From assembly GCA_002099625.1 (NCBI GenBank), contig GCA_002099625.1_4857.1: 64,000 bases of DNA; one strand, given 5' to 3'. The position numbers and the translations under genes are program-made. Position 1 is the stretch's first letter, and each line of letters starts with the position of its first letter. This document shows, piece after piece, positions 19,443-33,190 of this stretch. Source of the DNA: Escherichia coli. Its GTDB lineage: Bacteria; Pseudomonadota; Gammaproteobacteria; Enterobacterales; Enterobacteriaceae. Under the pieces are notes generated by a model, which was not told the DNA's origin, did no database searches, and saw only the letters and a program-made list of their open reading frames with translations.

Positions 19443-19733
19443 TTACGCCGTTACCGGAACAGGGGTGATTAACAGCTCCCCTTCCACCTCACGTAACTGA
19501 TAACCGTGCATAACGTTGTAGGATTTAATGCCGTCGCGTTGTTTGGCTTTCGCGACGAGTTTTTCCAACACGCGGCTATGTGCACGAGTCATCTCTTCTT
19601 TCGAATAAACAACTTGGAGTACGTGCTGTTCGTCAATAACGGCACGGAACTGCAGTACATCACCGTCTTCAACGTTGTAAACGACTTCTTTAGACTTCGA
19701 CACTGTACGATTAATTTGCATTATTTTCTCCAT
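19443..19733 (-). CDS. hypothetical protein
   Basis: 96-aa ORF. Confidence 0.5.
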   Translation of the reverse strand: MEKIMQINRTVSKSKEVVYNVEDGDVLQFRAVIDEQHVLQVVYSKEEMTRAHSRVLEKLVAKAKQRDGIKSYNVMHGYQLREVEGELLITPVPVTA

Positions 19734-20523
19734 TAGTAGTTTTCAGGGCACGTCCGTAGACATAACTTTCGGGTAGCCAACCGTTTTCTAATAACCACAT
19801 TGCGGCAGGCCCCCCAGTATATTGGTGGTAGGTGTAAATCAGTTCATCCCCCACCGGTATTTCAGACTGGATACAGTGCATCAACAGCCCGAACTCCTCT
19901 CGGCTTAGAGTAACCACCCCTTCTGCGGTAAACCATCCACCGATAACCCAGCGATGCCCACGGTGCGAAAGCACTGTCAACTTGTAGCTATCAGCGTTTC
20001 GCCACGACATCAGCCTCCCGCCCGTAACGAGCGTTGAGTAGATAGAGCTTGTACCGTAAAGCATTCTAACCCAATCCAAGAACGCTTTCTTACTATCGAA
20101 CAACGAACTGACATCCCCACAGAAATCCTCATCGTGGCTAGGCACCGATGAATTAATTTTGCGGTAGTTTATCGTTTCGCAACAAAAGCCCATGCGAGCA
20201 TATTCGTCCCCTTCCGAACGAGTAAAATGCATCGCGTAGTTACACCCCGCTGAGCGGAGTAAAGCATCCGCAAGCGAGGTTAACTGGGCGTCTAAAGCAC
20301 GAACCATGTTGATAACTTCTAACATGTATCCGTGGTCCAGACAGAGCACGATCGCGTCAGGCGCAACCGTGTCCCGACTGAATACTTCAAAGATTCGGTA
20401 GTAAAGACGGCGTTCATCTTGTAACGTGGAAGGATCGATATCATTTAACAACGATAACGCTTTACGGTCTTCCAACCACGTTCGGTCCAGAATCCTCTCC
20501 GTGCGTTCGATAACTCTCAGCAT
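19711..20523 (-). CDS. hypothetical protein
   Basis: 270-aa ORF. Confidence 0.5.
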   Translation of the reverse strand: MLRVIERTERILDRTWLEDRKALSLLNDIDPSTLQDERRLYYRIFEVFSRDTVAPDAIVLCLDHGYMLEVINMVRALDAQLTSLADALLRSAGCNYAMHFTRSEGDEYARMGFCCETINYRKINSSVPSHDEDFCGDVSSLFDSKKAFLDWVRMLYGTSSIYSTLVTGGRLMSWRNADSYKLTVLSHRGHRWVIGGWFTAEGVVTLSREEFGLLMHCIQSEIPVGDELIYTYHQYTGGPAAMWLLENGWLPESYVYGRALKTTNGENNAN

Positions 20524-20532
20524 ATTCTCTCC

Positions 20533-21336
20533 TTACGCAAGGGTGTAGTGATGTGTGATTACACGATACTCCAACCCTTCGATAGAAGGAAACTCGTGCT
20601 CTATCGCAACGCCCATGTTGACCTTTTTACCTTTCTGTCCCGCCAAATGCAAAATAGCGTGGTAGTGTTTTAGAAACTCTACCGAGTAAGCAACCGGGTC
20701 AAAAGTTTGGCAGCAGAATTGCTCAGTAATGATGCTCTTCGGGAATTCCTTATAAAGCATTAATGAAAACGGTTTCTGGCCGTGCAACCCCACGAACGCA
20801 GAGACAAAACCATTTGCTAATTCACCCAACATCTCACGCGTTCCTGCGTCTTTTAGCGTAGGTCGCATTAGATAGCAAACATCCTGGGTTTGTTCTAATG
20901 ACAATGTCTCCAACGGGACAACCGATGGGTCTGACGTAAAACCGTATTTCGGACTGACAGTAATCTCCACACGCTTCGTTACAGCTTCGAACCCCAGGCG
21001 CTGGTATAGTGCTGCGTGCTCAGTGTCGTGCGGAAAGCAGGTAATATCGAGCATCTGCACTTCCAGGAGTCGCGTTAAACGCTTCCACTCGTGGAACAGG
21101 GGCTCGGAGAGCACGTGAAGCTCGTAGATGTAGTAAACAATACCTGAACGACATCCACGAAAATACATTTGCGCACGACCGCTATTGCTCAACACTAACC
21201 AATGATCGTCTTCTTGGTCTGCGACGGGTCGCAAATCTTGAATCCGTTCGCGGAGTTGCCCCAAGGTGGTCAACCGACCACTAAACTCTACGGTCAGGTC
21301 GTTTTTGTCCATACCGTATAGATTAAATAGTTGCAT
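20533..21336 (-). CDS. hypothetical protein, possible N-terminal acetyltransferase-like domain
   Basis: 267-aa ORF; weak GNAT-like C-terminal motif HAALYQRLGFE, no clear motif A. Confidence 0.4.
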   Translation of the reverse strand: MQLFNLYGMDKNDLTVEFSGRLTTLGQLRERIQDLRPVADQEDDHWLVLSNSGRAQMYFRGCRSGIVYYIYELHVLSEPLFHEWKRLTRLLEVQMLDITCFPHDTEHAALYQRLGFEAVTKRVEITVSPKYGFTSDPSVVPLETLSLEQTQDVCYLMRPTLKDAGTREMLGELANGFVSAFVGLHGQKPFSLMLYKEFPKSIITEQFCCQTFDPVAYSVEFLKHYHAILHLAGQKGKKVNMGVAIEHEFPSIEGLEYRVITHHYTLA

Positions 21337-21345
21337 GTTGGTACC

Positions 21346-22164
21346 TTATAAGGTGCCGATTAGCTCCGTCACCGCTTTACGCTTATTCGCATCCGCAGAC
21401 ATATATCGACCTACTTGAACTTCGCGCCAAGTAAAGCCGTAATAAATATCGCGTGTGAGTAACGTATCTGCGTTTGACAGAACGACCTTATTGCCATCGG
21501 CAGCTTGTTGTTTTAAAAGTTTCGCTAACTCGCGGTGGTCAGCTTGTGAAAATTCTTTGCTGTGATACTGCGCGTGTTTAGCCGTATCCGAAAGTGGGAT
21601 GTAGGGCGGGTCGGCGTATATCACAGCGTTAGATGGGCACTTATTTAGGATGTCGCGGAAGTCCGCGCAGAGCAGCTCGACGTTGGTTTCCGAACAACGT
21701 TTTGCCCACGCCAGAATTTCCTCTTCAGGGAAATAGACACCGTTCGGGTGTTGACCATAGGGCACGTTAAACCCACCCGACTGATTGTATCTGCACAAAC
21801 CATTGTAACCATGACGTGTAAGATACAGGAACATCGCGGCGCGCTGGAGATTAGGTTTCCCCGTGGTTGCTTCGCTGTTAAATCCCTCGCGTCGTTCCAT
21901 GTAGAGACCGCGGTCCGTCCCATTTGCAAAGAGCGCCTTTGCTTCCAGAATCAGCGCTTCCGGACGATCGCGCGCCATGGTCAGTAACTCGATTAAGTCC
22001 GGGTTCGTGTCGCCGAGAATATAGTTCGGGTATTTAGTGTTTAAAAACACTGACCCTGCGCCCACAAAAGGTTCAACGAAATACTCAGCATCCGGAAACA
22101 CCTGTAGCAGCTCGGGCAGTACACGACTCTTACCACCCATCCATTTTAAAATTGGTTTTATCAC
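21346..22164 (-). CDS. dam: DNA adenine methyltransferase (Dam-like, GATC-type)
   Basis: Motifs FVGAGSVFLNT (SAM binding), LYLTRHGYNGLCRYN and DPPY catalytic motif; 272 aa. Confidence 0.85.
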   Translation of the reverse strand: MIKPILKWMGGKSRVLPELLQVFPDAEYFVEPFVGAGSVFLNTKYPNYILGDTNPDLIELLTMARDRPEALILEAKALFANGTDRGLYMERREGFNSEATTGKPNLQRAAMFLYLTRHGYNGLCRYNQSGGFNVPYGQHPNGVYFPEEEILAWAKRCSETNVELLCADFRDILNKCPSNAVIYADPPYIPLSDTAKHAQYHSKEFSQADHRELAKLLKQQAADGNKVVLSNADTLLTRDIYYGFTWREVQVGRYMSADANKRKAVTELIGTL

Positions 22165-22167
22165 CCG

Positions 22168-23169
22168 TTAACATCCTCTCATGCCAGATTGAAACATATC
22201 ACTGATAGTCAGCCTGGTTGTAGTCTCCACCGGAATGCTAGGTTCTTCTTTCAGCACTCGATCGGCGCGGTTCCCATTCACCCGTTTCCAGCTAATAAGT
22301 TCAGGATCGCGTTTCAACGTTAGTGTACGCAGTACCTGCTTGCAACGTAAGATGTTACCGTACAGGTGATTTGCTGGATTATTATCAGCAGCTGTTTCAA
22401 TATAGACTTGGTCGGAATGACGTTGTGCGAAATCGAATAGCGCGCCCATTAGCCGGCGGCCAATGCCACGTTTACGGTGCGTGGGTGCAACGGTTAAACC
22501 AGAAAGTTCAACGACGCCTGGTGTAACCAAGCGCATCTGGGCAATACCGACGATATCATGGCCGTCTCGCCAAATTGCAGTCTCCACATTAGCGTGCTGA
22601 ATTCTTGCTATTACTGTTTCTGCTAACGGACCAATGTGTGTATAGTAGCCACGCATATCGTATTCTAGCTCTTCGCAAATTGCACCGCTAATCAAATTCA
22701 GGATAACGTCTTTATCTTCCTTGGTAAGTTCTGCGTATGCATCACCAGAAATAATCTTGATTTCTGATGCGGTGATTACTTTGTCAAACAGTTTAGAATG
22801 ACATGCCCAAACGATATCTGAAAGAACAAACCCTTTTTCGACCAGTTTTTGTTCAACATCGTCAGTAGGTGCTGGGCACGACATATATTCGAATCCGGTA
22901 TGGTCGAGCACAAGGGCCAAACCAACTTTATCGAATGCCCCAGGTACAAACTCCTCAAAATAGTGACAGGTTAGCGTAGGGTCACCGTGTCGATAGGTGG
23001 CCACTAAATAACCCTCCCAGGTTTCTTTATTCTTCACCACGTAAACAGAATAAGTCTCGTCCTTTAGAAACTCTTTTAGGCGGCGTGCTCGTACAGTATC
23101 GCTACCGACGTTATTTCGGAACTCGGCAGTGCGGATGCTGGTGCGAAACAATTTAGCCACAGTTTTCAT
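22168..23169 (-). CDS. GNAT-family acetyltransferase domain protein
   Basis: C-terminal motif A HRKRGIGRRLMGALFDF; start set at ATG 23169 (MKTVAKLF) so the ORF does not run through the terminator at 23221..23255. Confidence 0.5.
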   Translation of the reverse strand: MKTVAKLFRTSIRTAEFRNNVGSDTVRARRLKEFLKDETYSVYVVKNKETWEGYLVATYRHGDPTLTCHYFEEFVPGAFDKVGLALVLDHTGFEYMSCPAPTDDVEQKLVEKGFVLSDIVWACHSKLFDKVITASEIKIISGDAYAELTKEDKDVILNLISGAICEELEYDMRGYYTHIGPLAETVIARIQHANVETAIWRDGHDIVGIAQMRLVTPGVVELSGLTVAPTHRKRGIGRRLMGALFDFAQRHSDQVYIETAADNNPANHLYGNILRCKQVLRTLTLKRDPELISWKRVNGNRADRVLKEEPSIPVETTTRLTISDMFQSGMRGC

Positions 23170-25605: not shown

Positions 25606-26364
25606 TTACTCGATAGCCTTGTGGTTCTTCATTTCTGGTGTCCAGGTGTGCTCAATCCATGCTTCGATGACCGGCTTGATGCCCGGACTTTTGAAGAATG
25701 CATTTAATGACGGCCATTCCCCTAACGCGTACTTGTTAGTGAAATTGAGCGACATTACACTGAAGCCTTCGCGTTTGTTAAACAACGCAGAAGGGGCCAA
25801 GGAATAAGACAACATGGCCTGCGGCGTATCCGATTCGGGACGCAGCAGTGTCATGCGGCGGGTGACACGCAGTTCAATATCGTTGAAGTTAGCCCGGAGG
25901 TCTTCTTTAAATTTGACACTGCGGAAGAAACGATTTCCTGTTTCGGATGCTTTATTTACCAATCGCTCGGTTTGCATCACGTCTTTAAAATACGCATTGA
26001 TACATTCTTCAATGAAGACATAGCGTGGTGCAGCTTCACGCAGTGCTTCTAAGTCGAACTCTTTCCACGCGGGTATGAGTTCAGGCTTACGAGCGATGTG
26101 TTTAAAGAACATCCTGGCTGAGACTTCACGCAGTGCTTTCAGCAACCCGCGAATAACATCTTCCCGCGTTGCGTTAGTTGCGAAGAACTCAGTCGTGCCG
26201 TGTACAAAGGTAGCGCCAGTTTTAGCGCTGATGAGCTTATGCTCTATCATAATCGGCATCCCGCCCTTACCGATCATCTCTTCGTTATACAAAAACACAT
26301 AACGATATTCGCCACAGGCAGTGGGGACGGACAGGAACTCTTTCTTCGTAGTATTAACAGTCAT
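25606..26364 (-). CDS. hypothetical protein
   Basis: 252-aa ORF; class B promoter about 90 nt upstream. Confidence 0.5.
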   Translation of the reverse strand: MTVNTTKKEFLSVPTACGEYRYVFLYNEEMIGKGGMPIMIEHKLISAKTGATFVHGTTEFFATNATREDVIRGLLKALREVSARMFFKHIARKPELIPAWKEFDLEALREAAPRYVFIEECINAYFKDVMQTERLVNKASETGNRFFRSVKFKEDLRANFNDIELRVTRRMTLLRPESDTPQAMLSYSLAPSALFNKREGFSVMSLNFTNKYALGEWPSLNAFFKSPGIKPVIEAWIEHTWTPEMKNHKAIE

Positions 26365-26521: not shown

Positions 26522-27121
26522 TCACTGATGATCAACTTTCGGTTCAGACCACTCGGGGACTGGCGGAAGTTTAATATCAGTTGCGTATTCTGAAGGCACC
26601 GCGAGTGTGGTAAAGCCACGACACGCTAAATAGTGCTGCATTCGTGCTGCCTGATTCGCTGTATCGGTGATCACCAAATGGGTCTTACGCATAAGCGCGA
26701 GTACCGCCTGTCCTTCTTGCGGCGTGGGTGTACGTGGATGCTTACTGATAATACTCATTAACCAGTCACGTGCAATACCACCCACATTACAACTGGCCTC
26801 GCGCAAATCAACCACACCTTCACCCTCGCCCACCACCTGTTTGGTAGAGTTAGGATAAAAGCGATACGGTGCACGACGACGCTTACGACGTACTTCTGAA
26901 ATAGCACGTCCAAGTATCATCTGTGCGTGTTTAACGCTACAGCCGTCCACCGGTCTACGCATGTTCGTTACTAAACAGGCAATTTCTAACACCTTACCGA
27001 TTTGATAGCGACGCTTAAAGCCATGACGACTTATGTCTACGTATTCTGGAAGATTGCCGTTTTTATTGATGTTTGCAACCGTAATCAAAAACAGCGAATC
27101 GAGAATCATCTCAGACATCAC
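26522..27121 (-). CDS. hypothetical protein
   Basis: 199-aa ORF. Confidence 0.5.
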   Translation of the reverse strand: MMSEMILDSLFLITVANINKNGNLPEYVDISRHGFKRRYQIGKVLEIACLVTNMRRPVDGCSVKHAQMILGRAISEVRRKRRRAPYRFYPNSTKQVVGEGEGVVDLREASCNVGGIARDWLMSIISKHPRTPTPQEGQAVLALMRKTHLVITDTANQAARMQHYLACRGFTTLAVPSEYATDIKLPPVPEWSEPKVDHQ

Positions 27122-27130
27122 AGTTTCCCC

Positions 27131-27502
27131 TTAAAACCCCGCAACGACTGCAGACATAAAGTCATGAACGACTTTACGTTGTTCTGCAAGCGGGTAGCCA
27201 AATTTAGTAATGTCGTGCATCCACCGAACCCGGTGAGTCCGACCATCGTGACTGAATGTGGAGCGCAGTACCAGGAAATAATCCGCACTGACTCGGAAAT
27301 GTAACGAGCAGCTGCCATGTTTGGCTCGCACGGTCAACTGAATACGCTTTACGCCGTCGCCTAAATATTTAGCGTCGATGTCGACCTGGTCAACCTCCGG
27401 CACAGCCCGTAAGGCTTGCGCGACGTCTTCCAGGTCCCCGTTCTTGCTCACATTAGCGCCATGGAGCGCTGCGGTACAGAGTTGAAGCTCTCGATAGAAC
27501 AT
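27131..27502 (-). CDS. hypothetical protein
   Basis: 123-aa ORF. Confidence 0.45.
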   Translation of the reverse strand: MFYRELQLCTAALHGANVSKNGDLEDVAQALRAVPEVDQVDIDAKYLGDGVKRIQLTVRAKHGSCSLHFRVSADYFLVLRSTFSHDGRTHRVRWMHDITKFGYPLAEQRKVVHDFMSAVVAGF

Positions 27503-28056
27503 CCTTCTAGTCTCCTGTCCCTCCCATAGTTCAAGGGATTTTTATAATACCAATCTTCATGCACAGGAGTCACGCGGATATACCGGCTGTAAAACAACAA
27601 GTATTTGTAGAAGGTATCAATACTGACGTCTTTGTCTACCGATAAAAAGTAGTTTAAAGACGGGTCGTCTGGGAACGACACAAAGATACCGGTGAAGTAC
27701 GCATCGGCATAGGGGCCATTAAACGGCGTCACTTCACACTTCAGGCAAGGTAAGCCAACCTGAAACGCGTTCTGTCCTGTCCAGTAAATTCCACGTGTGG
27801 TTGCATCGCGTGTTTTCCCATCGGGACGACAAACAACCCCTGCCATAAAACTGGACCGTTGACTTGGGTCAGCCGCATTTAAGAACTGGGCTATTCTGTC
27901 TACTGAAAAATATTTTAACGTGCCGGGCGGTAATTGCCAGAACTGTCCCATCGCACGTACCACCTTCCAACCAGGGCGATTTCTTGCCCCAAAACGCTTT
28001 ACACAAAAAGTATATCGCGAGCCAGTCTGATGTGGCACGCTGCGGACAGCTACCAT
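27448..28056 (-). CDS. hypothetical protein
   Basis: 202-aa ORF; 3' end overlaps next gene. Confidence 0.5.
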   Translation of the reverse strand: MVAVRSVPHQTGSRYTFCVKRFGARNRPGWKVVRAMGQFWQLPPGTLKYFSVDRIAQFLNAADPSQRSSFMAGVVCRPDGKTRDATTRGIYWTGQNAFQVGLPCLKCEVTPFNGPYADAYFTGIFVSFPDDPSLNYFLSVDKDVSIDTFYKYLLFYSRYIRVTPVHEDWYYKNPLNYGRDRRLEGCSIESFNSVPQRSMALM

Positions 28057-28057
28057 G

Positions 28058-28534
28058 TTAAAGCTCCTTTACCATATCCTGGTATTCAGTTCGGAATCCG
28101 AAACGTTCATAAAACGCAATAGCACGGTCGTTATTACCGAGCACGTTAAGCTGCATCCATGCGCAGCCTTTTGATTTGCCATAGTTCTCTACGGCTTCGA
28201 TCAGTTCATGGCCAACGCCTTGTGAACGAACCGATTCATCTACAAAAAAGTTATATACCCAGAGGAAACGTTGTCCCTTTTTGGTGTAGCCAAAGGTGAT
28301 GAAGCCAACAGCCACACCACGGTCATCAACGGCGCAAGCGCACAGCGTACCTTCACCCCAAACCTCCTCCAGTTTTGAGATTTGATTAAACCCTTCACGA
28401 CCGTTTAAGTCGGCGAGTTTTATTTTCTGATCGTCGTATAACTTGTTGTGTAGTCCTAACAAATCCGCGTAGTATTTCTTTCCATACGGGGAGTTGGGCT
28501 TGGTGACAAAAACGATTTTCATCACACCCTCCAA
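28058..28534 (-). CDS. GNAT-family N-acetyltransferase
   Basis: Motif A RSQGVGHELIEAV and motif B AIAFYERFGF; 158 aa. Confidence 0.65.
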   Translation of the reverse strand: MEGVMKIVFVTKPNSPYGKKYYADLLGLHNKLYDDQKIKLADLNGREGFNQISKLEEVWGEGTLCACAVDDRGVAVGFITFGYTKKGQRFLWVYNFFVDESVRSQGVGHELIEAVENYGKSKGCAWMQLNVLGNNDRAIAFYERFGFRTEYQDMVKEL

Positions 28535-29016
28535 TACATCTGGTAAGCACCTACCTTAAAGCCAGCTTTGTCGTAGAGCGACTTCGCGGCAGCGTTACCG
28601 GCGTTCACGGACAGGTGAACAACTGTACACCCTTTTTCCGTTGCGGATTTCTTTACCGCATCCATCAACGCGGTGCCGTAACCTTTACCACGTGCGCTGC
28701 TGCTAACGACCAGTGAGGATACCGACATCATCGTCACACCCTCTTCAGTCATCGTGCGGTATTGCGCAAAGCCATACAAGACACCGTCGTCCACGACCGC
28801 CAGTAAACGACCCCGGAAGCGCTCGGCTAACGATTTAGCCGGCGTAAAACGGACATTAATACCCGTCTCTTTTCGATAGCTTTCTATTTCGCTTTTGTCC
28901 AGCTCGTTATAAAGCGCGAGGATATCTGTGGAATATTTCCTGCCGTTAGCCGTGTCTGGCCCCACTATGGTAATAATCTTCATCAGTTCACCTCGGCCAG
29001 CGATTGCTTCGTCCAC
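28522..29016 (-). CDS. GNAT-family N-acetyltransferase
   Basis: Motif A ARGKGYGTALMDAV and motif B KSLYDKAGF; 164 aa; tandem with 28058..28534. Confidence 0.65.
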   Translation of the reverse strand: MDEAIAGRGELMKIITIVGPDTANGRKYSTDILALYNELDKSEIESYRKETGINVRFTPAKSLAERFRGRLLAVVDDGVLYGFAQYRTMTEEGVTMMSVSSLVVSSSARGKGYGTALMDAVKKSATEKGCTVVHLSVNAGNAAAKSLYDKAGFKVGAYQMYWRV

Positions 29017-30116
29017 TCCATTAGACCCTCCGCCACGCGTACCAACGCCGTGGTGAATGCGTCTTCCATCGCCATTGCATTACGGTAACGTAACGTGGCC
29101 TCCTTCAGCTCATCCCCTTCTAGGTTCTTAAGCTCGGACTTCATCGCTTCCACTTCTTCGTAAATGCCGGTGTAGCCCACAACACGGTTCTTTGTTCCAC
29201 GTGCAGCAATAGATTTGATAAGTGCTTCCACAGCCTCTATTGCTTTCCCACACTGATGCATATCCAGCGATTTAATGGTTTCACCATACTCACCGTCACG
29301 CGCAATTGCCCAACTGACCTTACCACTATGGTGCTCAACCACAACGATATTTCCAGGGACAGGAAAAGCTTCCACCTTTTTAAAGGGATCGATGATGCCA
29401 AGCAACCCAGCAGCACGCTTAACTGCCCAGTTCGTGGACTTGCTGATTTGTTTTAAGCCTGGCCCTTCGAATGCTTTGCTTTTCTTCAGAGCGGTGCGTG
29501 TGTAAACCGTGTACTTTTGCACGACGCCTTCGTACGCATTTGTTTGTTTAGAAAACTTAACACACGCTTCAAAATCGGGTCGATCTTCAAAGCAAACTTT
29601 AGACGTCCAGCTGCTCGTGTGAACGTCGACCGCAGCGAGTGTTTTGTGGTCATCCAATAACGACATTCGTGCTTTGAGCTTATTGAGCTTACGCTCCATG
29701 AAAGCAGCTTTCGAAGTTATTTCTTTCAAACGGTCGGCTTGTTCTTTCGCTAGCGCTTCCGCGAAATCGTAAAAGCGTAATGCGAGCTTTTTCGAAAGTT
29801 TACCCGCGCCCTTTGCGGTTGCGCCTAGTCCAGCACCCACTAACTTTCCAGTACCTTTAACAGCTTTCGCAGTAATGCGCCCTGCTGCGCGATGGATGCC
29901 AGCCCGCGGGTCAGTATCAGTCATAAACTGAGCACGCTCCATCGCTTCGCGCGATTCACGAGCAACCAACATATCTTCACCGTCGTCGGTTAAGCACCAA
30001 CGCTGACGAATCGCGCAAACCGCAGGGAAGTCGGGCTTAACTCCCAGACCTTCGAGTGCGACCAGGCGATCGTAGTCGTCAGTCAGGACTTCTAAATCTA
30101 AATCGAGCGTCGACAT
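28983..30116 (-). CDS. hypothetical protein
   Basis: 377-aa ORF with K/A/G-rich segment. Confidence 0.5.
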   Translation of the reverse strand: MSTLDLDLEVLTDDYDRLVALEGLGVKPDFPAVCAIRQRWCLTDDGEDMLVARESREAMERAQFMTDTDPRAGIHRAAGRITAKAVKGTGKLVGAGLGATAKGAGKLSKKLALRFYDFAEALAKEQADRLKEITSKAAFMERKLNKLKARMSLLDDHKTLAAVDVHTSSWTSKVCFEDRPDFEACVKFSKQTNAYEGVVQKYTVYTRTALKKSKAFEGPGLKQISKSTNWAVKRAAGLLGIIDPFKKVEAFPVPGNIVVVEHHSGKVSWAIARDGEYGETIKSLDMHQCGKAIEAVEALIKSIAARGTKNRVVGYTGIYEEVEAMKSELKNLEGDELKEATLRYRNAMAMEDAFTTALVRVAEGLMEWTKQSLAEVN

Positions 30117-30126
30117 CCCCTGCTCC

Positions 30127-30399
30127 TTACATCCGCGTCAAAGTATAGTAGTAGTTGCGATGTGGCCATCGAACACACAAGGCAAATATCTCTCCCGTAT
30201 CCGGCGTGGTGTAAACTGTCTGAATTGGGTCATTTTCTTGTGGTGCGACTTTCGAATCAAAACCGTGATGTTCCAGGTAATCGAAGAACTCATCTTCAGT
30301 GCCTGGGAACAGACGAAGGCTGGTCACCTTCTTAATCGGTTTTGACGGCGTAGGGAAGAATGCTTCCCACAAACGACGAGCTAAACTGGTAGTTTGCAT
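30127..30399 (-). CDS. hypothetical protein
   Basis: 90-aa ORF. Confidence 0.45.
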   Translation of the reverse strand: MQTTSLARRLWEAFFPTPSKPIKKVTSLRLFPGTEDEFFDYLEHHGFDSKVAPQENDPIQTVYTTPDTGEIFALCVRWPHRNYYYTLTRM

Positions 30400-30429
30400 A
30401 ATAGCGACCTCTGATTAAAGGCAACGTGG

Positions 30430-31029
30430 TCATAATAAGCACAAGCTCTCAAGCCACAGATGTCCTTCAAGCGCATGGTGGTAACAAGGAATACCACACT
30501 GCTTAGCGTATTTCACGCCCATGGCAGTACCGCCGGTCGGATTACCTTGTTTATCTAAAGGCGCAGAGTAATAAACTGCGTCTACAGGCGTTGCTAAATC
30601 ATCGCCCATAATTATATTCAGATTACGGCCATGAAGCGCCCAGGCGAACTCCTGGAGCTTTTCTGGCGCGGGATGAAGCTTACCTACTATCTCACGATAG
30701 CGGTCATCCTGAGGGATTACACGGAACTCTACGTTGGGATTCTGTTTCTTGAGCCAGAGCTTTTTCTCATCGGGTAGGTAACAAATGAACTCATCATCCC
30801 ACACCACTTTCTTGCCGGTATCTTGGTCGATTGTATTCGCCCACTGTCGGGCAAATCGGAATTGCAATTGGTCTGGACCACACCAGCAGCCGCCAGAAGA
30901 AAAATGAATCGTGTAATCCTTGGCGTGCAGCGCATTAAACCCACGTAACAATCGCATGTACATTTCAGACATGGTATCTTCATCAGTCTTCCGAGAACCG
31001 ATTACCGCAATTTTATAAATCTTTTTCAT
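30430..31029 (-). CDS. SLOG/DprA/LOG-like Rossmann-fold protein
   Basis: IAVIGSRK...HFSSGGCWCGPD pattern (GSR plus SGGxxG) typical of DprA/Smf, LOG and SLOG families; 199 aa. Confidence 0.45.
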   Translation of the reverse strand: MKKIYKIAVIGSRKTDEDTMSEMYMRLLRGFNALHAKDYTIHFSSGGCWCGPDQLQFRFARQWANTIDQDTGKKVVWDDEFICYLPDEKKLWLKKQNPNVEFRVIPQDDRYREIVGKLHPAPEKLQEFAWALHGRNLNIIMGDDLATPVDAVYYSAPLDKQGNPTGGTAMGVKYAKQCGIPCYHHALEGHLWLESLCLL

Positions 31030-32704: not shown

Positions 32705-33190
32705 TTAGACGAAATGACCTTCTGCCATCGAAAGAAAAATGGGAACGCTTTCGGCGTAATGTGTTAAAAGCTTTTCCTCCGGTGGCGTGTGTGACGAAAT
32801 AACATTGTAGTTCGTCATACGAAAATACCGTTGGCCGTCAGCAGCAATATACCATCGGTCAATCTGGAAGCCTTGTTGGTGAAAGAATCCTAGCGCGGGA
32901 ATGTTGGTCGGGTGAACACGACAGCTGACGTGTTTACGATCGGAGTTCTGCTGAAGATACTTAAGCATAAATCTGCCGACACCGCCCCGGCGCGATTCTT
33001 CGGGCACAACCATATAGACCAAATGGCCAGGTTCCCATGCCATGATTCCCCGCACGATATCATCCTCAACAAACATCGTGAGTTTAATAGGCTCCTCACG
33101 GATACTGTTTAAGTCGCGCACCCATTCAACCAGTTCAGGATAAACATTCGCGGGAATCTTATCCTCGACCACATTAATAACAAGCATCAC
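32705..33190 (-). CDS. GNAT-family N-acetyltransferase
   Basis: Motif A SRRGGVGRFMLKYL and motif B ALGFFHQQGF. Confidence 0.55.
   Translation of the reverse strand: MMLVINVVEDKIPANVYPELVEWVRDLNSIREEPIKLTMFVEDDIVRGIMAWEPGHLVYMVVPEESRRGGVGRFMLKYLQQNSDRKHVSCRVHPTNIPALGFFHQQGFQIDRWYIAADGQRYFRMTNYNVISSHTPPEEKLLTHYAESVPIFLSMAEGHFV

Follow-up and report, generated by a model that had tools for sequence, protein, structure and literature searches.

A 64,000-nucleotide stretch of DNA deposited with an Escherichia coli assembly (GCA_002099625.1, contig GCA_002099625.1_4857.1; hereafter the window) carries two adjacent genes for acetyltransferases of the GNAT superfamily, which lie on the minus strand directly downstream of the gene for an internal head protein of a jumbo phage. 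The downstream gene (copy 1, 28058..28522, 154 aa) encodes a protein that is 100% identical to gp95 of Salmonella phage SPN3US (YP_009153389 / AEP83928) and occupies the same position after gp94, while the upstream gene (copy 2, 28522..28983, 153 aa) is absent from SPN3US. With moderate confidence, we favor the reading that both are GNATs of the head module, copy 1 being an N-acetyltransferase that is delivered from the capsid and whose substrate has shifted, and copy 2 an enzyme that acts on another substrate. Judged by its sequence, the window belongs to an SPN3US-like (Seoulvirus) jumbo phage: the region 27000..30500 shares 95-98.5% DNA identity with Seoulvirus jumbo phages of Salmonella and Escherichia, Salmonella phage 1252 being the closest match and SPN3US itself reaching 95.5%, and the minus strand holds every gene between 19 and 35 kb. 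The names gp88 to gp107 used here follow the original SPN3US numbering applied to the window homologues.

Both tandem genes encode acetyl-CoA-dependent acyltransferases with a GNAT fold that belong to a single phage-specific family. The Pfam model PF00583 (Acetyltransf_1) matched copy 1 with 65.0 bits (E 9.8e-18) and copy 2 with 63.7 bits (E 2.3e-17), against a gathering cut-off of 20.7, and the PHROG family phrog_3810, annotated as 'acetyltransferase', matched copy 1 over profile positions 1-153 of 155 (E 2.5e-59) and copy 2 over positions 1-149 (E 9e-25). The pyrophosphate-binding loop of motif A (R/Q-x-x-G-x-G/A), which follows strand beta4, reads RSQGVG (copy 1) and RGKGYG (copy 2), its arginine and both glycines being conserved throughout the two respective clades, and the motif-B tyrosine is present in AFYERFGF and SLYDKAGF, respectively. 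This tyrosine (Tyr138 in copy 1, Tyr137 in copy 2), which lies on helix alpha4 and in GNATs serves as general acid or positions the acetyl group, aligns with Tyr140 of the human acetyltransferase SSAT and was invariant in all 21 sequences compared. Furthermore, an AlphaFold 2 model of copy 2 (predicted local distance difference test, pLDDT, 88; predicted template modeling score 0.81) showed the standard GNAT topology, and a Foldseek search with it matched 690 GNAT chains of the Protein Data Bank (PDB) at E<=1e-3. The tandem GNAT pair with motifs A and B that had been proposed in the initial annotation is thus borne out by profile searches and, for copy 2, by structure prediction. The open reading frames (ORFs) of that annotation were also real and on the minus strand, but their TTG (28534) and GTG (29016) starts are those of the longest ORFs and not the true ones, which are the ATG codons at 28522 for copy 1 and 28983 for copy 2. 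These are almost certain because the MKI N-terminus is conserved, the SPN3US gene is annotated with 465 nt, the two ATGs are preceded by Shine-Dalgarno sites (GGAGGG 5 nt and GAGGTG 7 nt upstream, respectively) and both overlap the preceding gene in a TGATG arrangement.

The identity of copy 1 with SPN3US gp95, annotated there as a 'putative GNAT family acetyltransferase', allowed us to draw on published proteomic data. Mass spectrometry of SPN3US virions detected gp95 (17.6 kDa) with 8 unique peptides, 56% coverage and a spectral count per mass (SC/M) of 0.85, close to the values for gp94 (0.84) and the 12-copy portal protein (0.93). In the triplicate data published in 2023, gp95 gave 39, 38 and 46 peptide-spectrum matches in whole virions and 29, 29 and 39 in purified tailless heads; the comparison yielded a ratio of 1.11 and assigned it to the Head class, together with gp94 (0.98) and gp97 (1.22). 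The virion association of gp95 therefore appears robust, while its location in the head rests on the 2023 data, since the supplement of a 2020 SPN3US study had labeled the protein 'Tail'. As a side observation, the gp95 orthologue of phage SEGD1 is annotated as a truncated coding sequence (CDS) of 321 nt (L016:7501-7821), and no CDS is annotated at the gp104 position of the same phage (L016:12762-13880); both irregularities probably reflect assembly frameshifts and not real gene loss.

The enzymology of this family comes from a separate literature. Li et al. 2023 (PMC9992855) expressed candidate spermidine N-acetyltransferases (SATs) in an E. coli delta-speG strain and found that N-acetylspermidine was produced by the proteins of the Erwinia phages phiEaH2 (YP_007237670) and vB_EamM_Caitlin (YP_009292176), while SPN3US YP_009153389, which is identical to copy 1, gave none in vivo in E. 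coli. Copy 1 is 72% identical to the phiEaH2 enzyme and 53% identical to the Caitlin enzyme, and all three fall in the same clade and PHROG family. The two active SATs are also positional orthologues of gp95, because each is encoded by the gene immediately after that of the internal head protein. Orthology to a verified SAT holds for copy 1 only, as copy 2 forms a separate clade with 26-32% identity. The polyamine study makes no mention of capsids, packaging or virion location, and the acetyltransferase nature of gp95 is not raised in the four papers on SPN3US head structure and proteomics, two of which were checked directly; the joining of the head packaging of gp95 with its enzymology is new and absent from the literature that we read.

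These observations bring up the alternative that both copies are ordinary spermidine or polyamine N-acetyltransferases that deplete or buffer host polyamines, a role put forward for the orthologues of the Erwinia phages, the negative result for the SPN3US protein being an expression artefact. The activity of the two positional orthologues speaks for it, as does the finding that, among proteins of solved structure, human SSAT2 comes closest to the active phiEaH2 enzyme and is among the PDB sequence matches of copy 1, with SSAT also near the top of the Foldseek list for copy 2. However, the active-site residues differ. In our alignment, His90-Asn91 of the phiEaH2 enzyme fall on Glu92-Asp93 of SSAT2, and Asp129 falls on SSAT2 Asp131; Glu92, on strand beta4, is the proposed general base of SSAT and Tyr140 the general acid. 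At the general-base position, which is His in the active phage SATs and Glu92 in SSAT, copy 1 has Tyr90 and copy 2 has Ser. Within the 13-member gp95 clade, the change of Asp129 to Gly is the sole position that is invariant in 10 of 10 non-Seoulvirus members and altered in all three Seoulvirus members, and the change of His90 to Tyr or Ser is the only further site found under a relaxed rule. Copy 2 has Ser and Ala at the His90 and Asp129 sites, while the motif-A loop and the equivalent of Tyr140 are intact in every sequence compared. Relative to human SSAT1 and SSAT2 (PDB 2bei, 2b3u), with which they share about 20-25% identity, both copies thus retain the GNAT fold, the motif-A loop and the Tyr140 equivalent, whereas Glu92 is replaced by Tyr in copy 1 and Ser in copy 2, and Asp/Glu131 by Gly and Ala, respectively. 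A human SSAT1 sequence served in the motif and charge comparisons; the Glu92 and Asp131 equivalences are supported independently by the SSAT2 alignment.

Because motif A and the catalytic tyrosine of copy 1 are intact while Gly129 and Tyr90 are altered, we infer that copy 1 is a functional GNAT with a changed substrate site and not a decayed gene, with failed expression in the assay of Li et al. as the alternative explanation. The NCBIfam model for spermidine acetyltransferases (NF053587, SpmdActasePaiA) scored only 23.6 bits with copy 1 against a cut-off of 250 and was not listed for copy 2. Copy 2 is further set apart by its charge: its clade has isoelectric points (pI) of 9.2-9.6 and net charges of +5 to +8 (copy 2 itself pI 9.4, net +6) and it is 30-32% identical to the phiEaH2 and Caitlin SATs, whereas the pI of copy 1 and of the active SATs lies in the acidic to neutral range (5.6-6.7). 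A polycationic substrate is therefore disfavored for copy 2, and we regard it as unlikely that the pair consists of ordinary polyamine acetyltransferases. The suggestion in the initial annotation that the GNATs modify small molecules meets a divided answer: spermidine is acetylated by the orthologues of copy 1, but no such activity was seen with the identical protein of SPN3US.

The structural neighbors of the copy 2 model were generic small GNATs, namely AAC(3)-I, an integron cassette GNAT, SSAT and RimI-like proteins, with AAC(3)-Ib/Ia and SSAT heading the Foldseek list. The PDB sequence matches of copy 2 include PA4866, a tabtoxin-resistance protein and an AAC(3), and many AAC, Sat and ArsN1 models of NCBIfam gave weak matches only. 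Taken at face value, these similarities would suit a resistance enzyme of the aminoglycoside, streptothricin or phosphinothricin acetyltransferase type that shields phage replication from antibiotics. This seems highly improbable to us, as the scores were far below the cut-offs (30 versus 200 bits for AAC(3)-I), the resemblance does not extend beyond the generic acetyl-CoA core, and a basic protein would be a poor binder of polycationic aminoglycosides. More generally, assignment of a substrate from curated families failed for both copies, the RimI, AAC, Sat, ArsN and SAT models of NCBIfam all scoring far below their cut-offs; the best AAC(3)-I and AAC(6') models reached 28.8-32.4 bits against cut-offs of 140-300, and the RimI model TIGR01575 gave 43.2 and 47.6 bits for the two copies against 86.4.

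We then considered the genomic setting of the pair. The gene upstream of copy 2 (28983..30116, minus strand) encodes the 377-aa homologue of gp94, a phiKZ-type internal head protein (phrog_2497, E 6.6e-89; weak match to PF12699) that is classed as Head in SPN3US. Copy 1 is followed in the same transcription unit by the genes for the basic gp96 homologue (27448..28056, minus strand; phrog_9255 and synteny) and for the gp97 homologue (27131..27502, minus strand; phrog_8535), a head protein according to SPN3US proteomics. The adjacency of gp94 and a GNAT gene is conserved by synteny in Seoulvirus, Erskinevirus and Machinavirus. The more distant family relatives in Klebsiella phage FBKp24 and Serratia phage Moabite sit among small genes and tRNA genes and have no annotated head-protein gene beside them, so that the adjacency looks specific to the SPN3US-like group. 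It had been proposed that 27131..30399, with unknown neighbors, is a candidate accessory or anti-defence island. This does not agree with the synteny of the block across three genera, in which copy 2 alone is accessory, nor with the experimental detection of gp94, gp95 and gp97 as head proteins in SPN3US.

The genes gp92 to gp99 are bracketed by two strong hairpin terminators, one upstream of gp92 (31106-31080) and one after gp99 (25592-25571), which are the probable 5′ and 3′ boundaries of a gp92-gp99 unit on the minus strand. From gp94 to the GNATs we found no strong hairpin (10-bp stem), the sole weak match being inside the copy 2 coding sequence. A scan for sigma-70 promoters returned fewer matches than shuffled sequence and is uninformative, because its matches were below the shuffled level and the phage has its own RNA polymerases. 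The stop and start codons overlap as TGATGAA both between gp94 and copy 2 (28979..28985) and between copy 2 and copy 1 (28518..28524). The presence of this motif at both edges couples each GNAT translationally to the preceding gene, in the order gp94, copy 2, copy 1, and it also provides a 7-nt microhomology that could mediate a precise loss of copy 2.

Such an arrangement would also fit enzymes that work in head assembly, acetylating gp94, other internal head proteins or packaged polyamines, with gp95 merely trapped in the capsid. The predicted cotranscription and coupling with gp94, the equal abundance of gp94 and gp95 in virions, the adjacency kept in three genera, and the presence of RimI and N-terminal acetyltransferases among the weak matches are all in keeping with this possibility. 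On the other hand, no acetylated head protein has been reported in the SPN3US papers that we read, the RimI score of 47.6 is well short of the cut-off of 86.4, and the distant relatives of the family lack an annotated head-protein neighbor. We therefore consider a role in assembly quite unlikely, and we retain the reading of copy 1 as a capsid-delivered enzyme.

The history of copy 2 could be reconstructed from its distribution. Compared with SPN3US, in which gp94 and gp95 are adjacent with no GNAT gene between them, copy 2 is an exact one-gene insertion or deletion with the TGATGAA overlap on both sides, as seen in the alignment with SPN3US and phage Lh1B. The GenBank carriers are four phages (1252, Lh1B, JN03 and EC001), in all of which the protein is 100% identical; it is annotated as a GNAT with the same tandem layout in vB_EcoM_Lh1B and EC001 of Escherichia and JN03 of Salmonella, and as hypothetical in 1252. 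Only 3 of 1.84e9 representative proteins matched copy 2 below 1e-30, and a scan of IMG/VR for its relatives gave 88 pattern matches, none of which was confirmed. Nevertheless, the corresponding slot of other SPN3US-like contigs holds divergent homologues (85% and 76% identical), and a Caitlin-like contig (89% identity to Caitlin in the head protein) has a 47-49% identical copy 2 between the head protein gene and the copy 1 orthologue. The identity between the window and this contig is 47% for copy 2, 52% for copy 1 and 37% for the head protein. A recent acquisition of copy 2 is thus disfavored by the presence of a 47% identical copy in the same slot with a divergence like that of its neighbors, and since this divergence is in line with the neighbors, the GNAT pair predates the split of Seoulvirus and Machinavirus. 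A recent tandem duplication could be ruled out, as copy 1 and copy 2 share 30-34% identity and form separate clades. On the strength of these comparisons, copy 2 is an ancestral paralogue that has been lost repeatedly, namely in SPN3US, Caitlin, phiEaH2 and Asesino, and its loss probably proceeded by recombination between the two TGATGAA junctions.

Sliding identity also revealed that a part of copy 2 has been exchanged between phages. The window is 95-100% identical in DNA to the related contigs L005 and L007 across the region except at 28522..28797 (minus strand), where identity falls to 64-75%. This patch corresponds to codons 63-153 of copy 2, and codons 1-62 show no difference at all from L005 and L007. 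In the patch, the proportion of differing synonymous sites (pS) was 0.92, that is, saturated, and that of nonsynonymous sites (pN) was 0.175, giving a pN/pS of about 0.19. Saturated synonymous sites together with a low pN/pS point not to fast adaptive change but to an old allele that recombination introduced and purifying selection has maintained; positive selection on the patch was ruled out on the same grounds. We noted a second allele-replacement site at gp99 (25606..26364): the window carries the SPN3US-type protein (98.8% aa identity), and L005 and Lh1B carry a 254-aa allele that is 41% identical, although their DNA is otherwise 95-100% identical to the window around this difference.

Presence-absence polymorphism combined with swapped alleles is a pattern frequent in genes of host interaction, and it is in this light that the cluster might be an anti-defence island of accessory genes or a DNA-modification system of the Mom type, as the initial annotation had it; the nearby swap at gp99 and the position of gp104 beside a Dam gene could be cited in the same sense. 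However, the genes form part of a conserved block of head-protein genes, the patch is under purifying selection, and neither a Mom-like nor a known anti-defence family was matched in Pfam, PHROG, NCBIfam or the PDB. The proposal of DNA-base modification in particular found no backing, no Mom-named family appearing among the matches to these four libraries, which were not confirmed to hold Mom models. An anti-defence role is at most conceivable, and the island or Mom-like system as a whole strikes us as very unlikely.

Outside the tandem pair, the initial annotation had counted four to five GNATs within 13 kb. With a broad GNAT hidden Markov model, the 64-kb window yielded exactly four GNAT ORFs, none of them outside 22.2 to 33.2 kb, so that the count of four stands and the fifth falls away. 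As had been proposed, 32705..33190 (minus strand), the gp88 homologue, is a third and more divergent GNAT (Pfam 25.9 bits versus 20.7; phrog_7861, E 1.3e-78), and 22168..23169 (minus strand), the 333-aa gp104 homologue, has a C-terminal GNAT domain (Pfam E 3e-14; phrog_8663); its N-terminal half gave a marginal GNAT signal (domain E 0.002). In SPN3US, gp88 is absent from the 2017 virion list and gp104 is classed as non-virion. By contrast, the gp106 homologue (20533..21336, minus strand), put forward as a weaker GNAT, is unsupported as such: it has no Pfam or NCBIfam match, its hhalign probability against the GNAT profile was 13% over a 23-residue stretch around the motif-B-like string AALYQRLGFEA only (domain E 0.0014), and only four usable homologues were available, the AlphaFold 2 model (pLDDT 40) being too poor to use. 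The gp104 gene lies directly upstream of that of the Dam methylase gp105 (21346..22164, minus strand, assigned by correspondence with SPN3US), and beyond it gp106 and gp107 (19711..21336) are conserved proteins of unknown function. SPN3US has one further GNAT gene, at NC_027402 172536..173024, about 80 kb from the cluster. With the tandem pair counted once, three of the four independent loci lie within 11 kb of a 240-kb genome (p ~0.024 by simulation); the clustering is thus real but modest, being modestly non-random. AMR59843.1, given as a 'ribosomal-GNAT-like' example in the Iyer review, is not a GNAT of this region and is probably the 172536..173024 gene of SPN3US, as judged by accession offset.

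Several further features of the surrounding unit were observed. Six strong, G+C-rich hairpins lie on the minus strand (33914-33891, 31811-31788, 31106-31080, 25592-25571, 24862-24839 and 23256-23231), five with a 4-nt loop (TTCG in four of these) and the one at 31106-31080 with a loop of 7 nt. A T-rich tail follows every hairpin; they occupy short intergenic gaps and seem to mark the boundaries of transcription units. The N-terminal part of gp94 (29937..30116) keeps in the window, at residues 58-60, the A-M-E motif that the SPN3US papers flag as a possible cleavage site of the prohead protease. The first gene of the unit, gp92 (30430..31029), is named a 'DprA-like DNA recombination-mediator protein' in RefSeq and is 77-84% identical in amino acids even in the Caitlin-like contig, compared with 37% for the gp94 head protein. 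Finally, a divergent SPN3US-like and a Caitlin-like contig (L004:3529-4858 and L010:1279-1632) have extra genes between their gp93 and gp94 homologues that are absent from the window, among them one for a 107-117 aa protein with a PF20137 (BubE) match.

Taken together, the reading we favor would work as follows. Copy 1, and possibly copy 2, would be packaged into the capsid along with gp94 and enter the cell with the DNA; as soon as infection begins, the delivered copy 1 would draw on host acetyl-CoA for the N-acetylation of a primary amine. Given that the abundance of gp95 equals that of gp94, to which it is translationally coupled, gp94 may be its carrier. A polyamine would be the ancestral substrate of the family, from which the Seoulvirus copy 1 would have shifted away, at least as far as spermidine is concerned, and the basic copy 2 would act on a different, non-polycationic substrate such as a protein or an anionic metabolite.

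Several points weigh against this scheme. A virion protein of low copy number may be no more than an adventitious passenger, and the 2020 label 'Tail' conflicts with a head location. In the literature searched, we found no data on ejection of gp95 into the host or on its activity before new protein synthesis, and nothing relevant on a virion-packaged phage acetyltransferase or on the virion proteomes of the Erwinia relatives. The negative spermidine assay of the SPN3US protein, which is the only direct assay of copy 1, would be explained just as well by poor expression or by an inactive enzyme. A role of the SSAT residue equivalent to Asp129 is presumed, and the Foldseek and PDB neighbors are generic. 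For copy 2, expression and packaging are presumptive, and the gene is dispensable because SPN3US and most relatives are without it. The substrates proposed here for the two proteins are putative.

Annotated database records already exist for the genes themselves, and copy 1 is partly characterized, so that finding them is in itself ordinary. What is new is the link between packaging and enzymology, the hypothesis of the two residues (Gly129 and Tyr90) and the history of copy 2. The first joins two literatures, the polyamine study and the head proteomics, that do not cite one another, and because an acetyltransferase carried in the virion would be at work from time zero of infection, it changes the way in which the function should be tested. 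The second would explain the lost spermidine activity and help to define the determinants of substrate choice in this phage GNAT family. The presence or absence of copy 2 and the swapping of its alleles provide natural, isogenic-like pairs of phages with which the contribution of the second enzyme could be assessed.

A bolder version of this scheme, to which we would give rather little credence, is that gp94 and the GNAT or GNATs form a capsid-loading module of approximately 1:1 stoichiometry that is injected into the host, that copy 2 is a second effector directed at a variable host factor, for example a component of defence or translation, and that the Asp129Gly and His90Tyr changes of copy 1 represent a switch from polyamines to a new substrate. 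If so, the system would be a GNAT counterpart of T4 Alt that acetylates host targets before phage genes are expressed. Alt is a capsid-packaged and injected ADP-ribosyltransferase, and its analogy to gp95 is functional only, as the chemistry differs and the sequences are unrelated; the data, in which gp95 (17.6 kDa) falls in the lowest gel slice, give no sign of its processing by the prohead protease. A second functional analogy is offered by Rac of phage phiKMV, likewise without sequence relationship to gp95, which is a phage GNAT that acetylates the alpha subunit of the host RNA polymerase.

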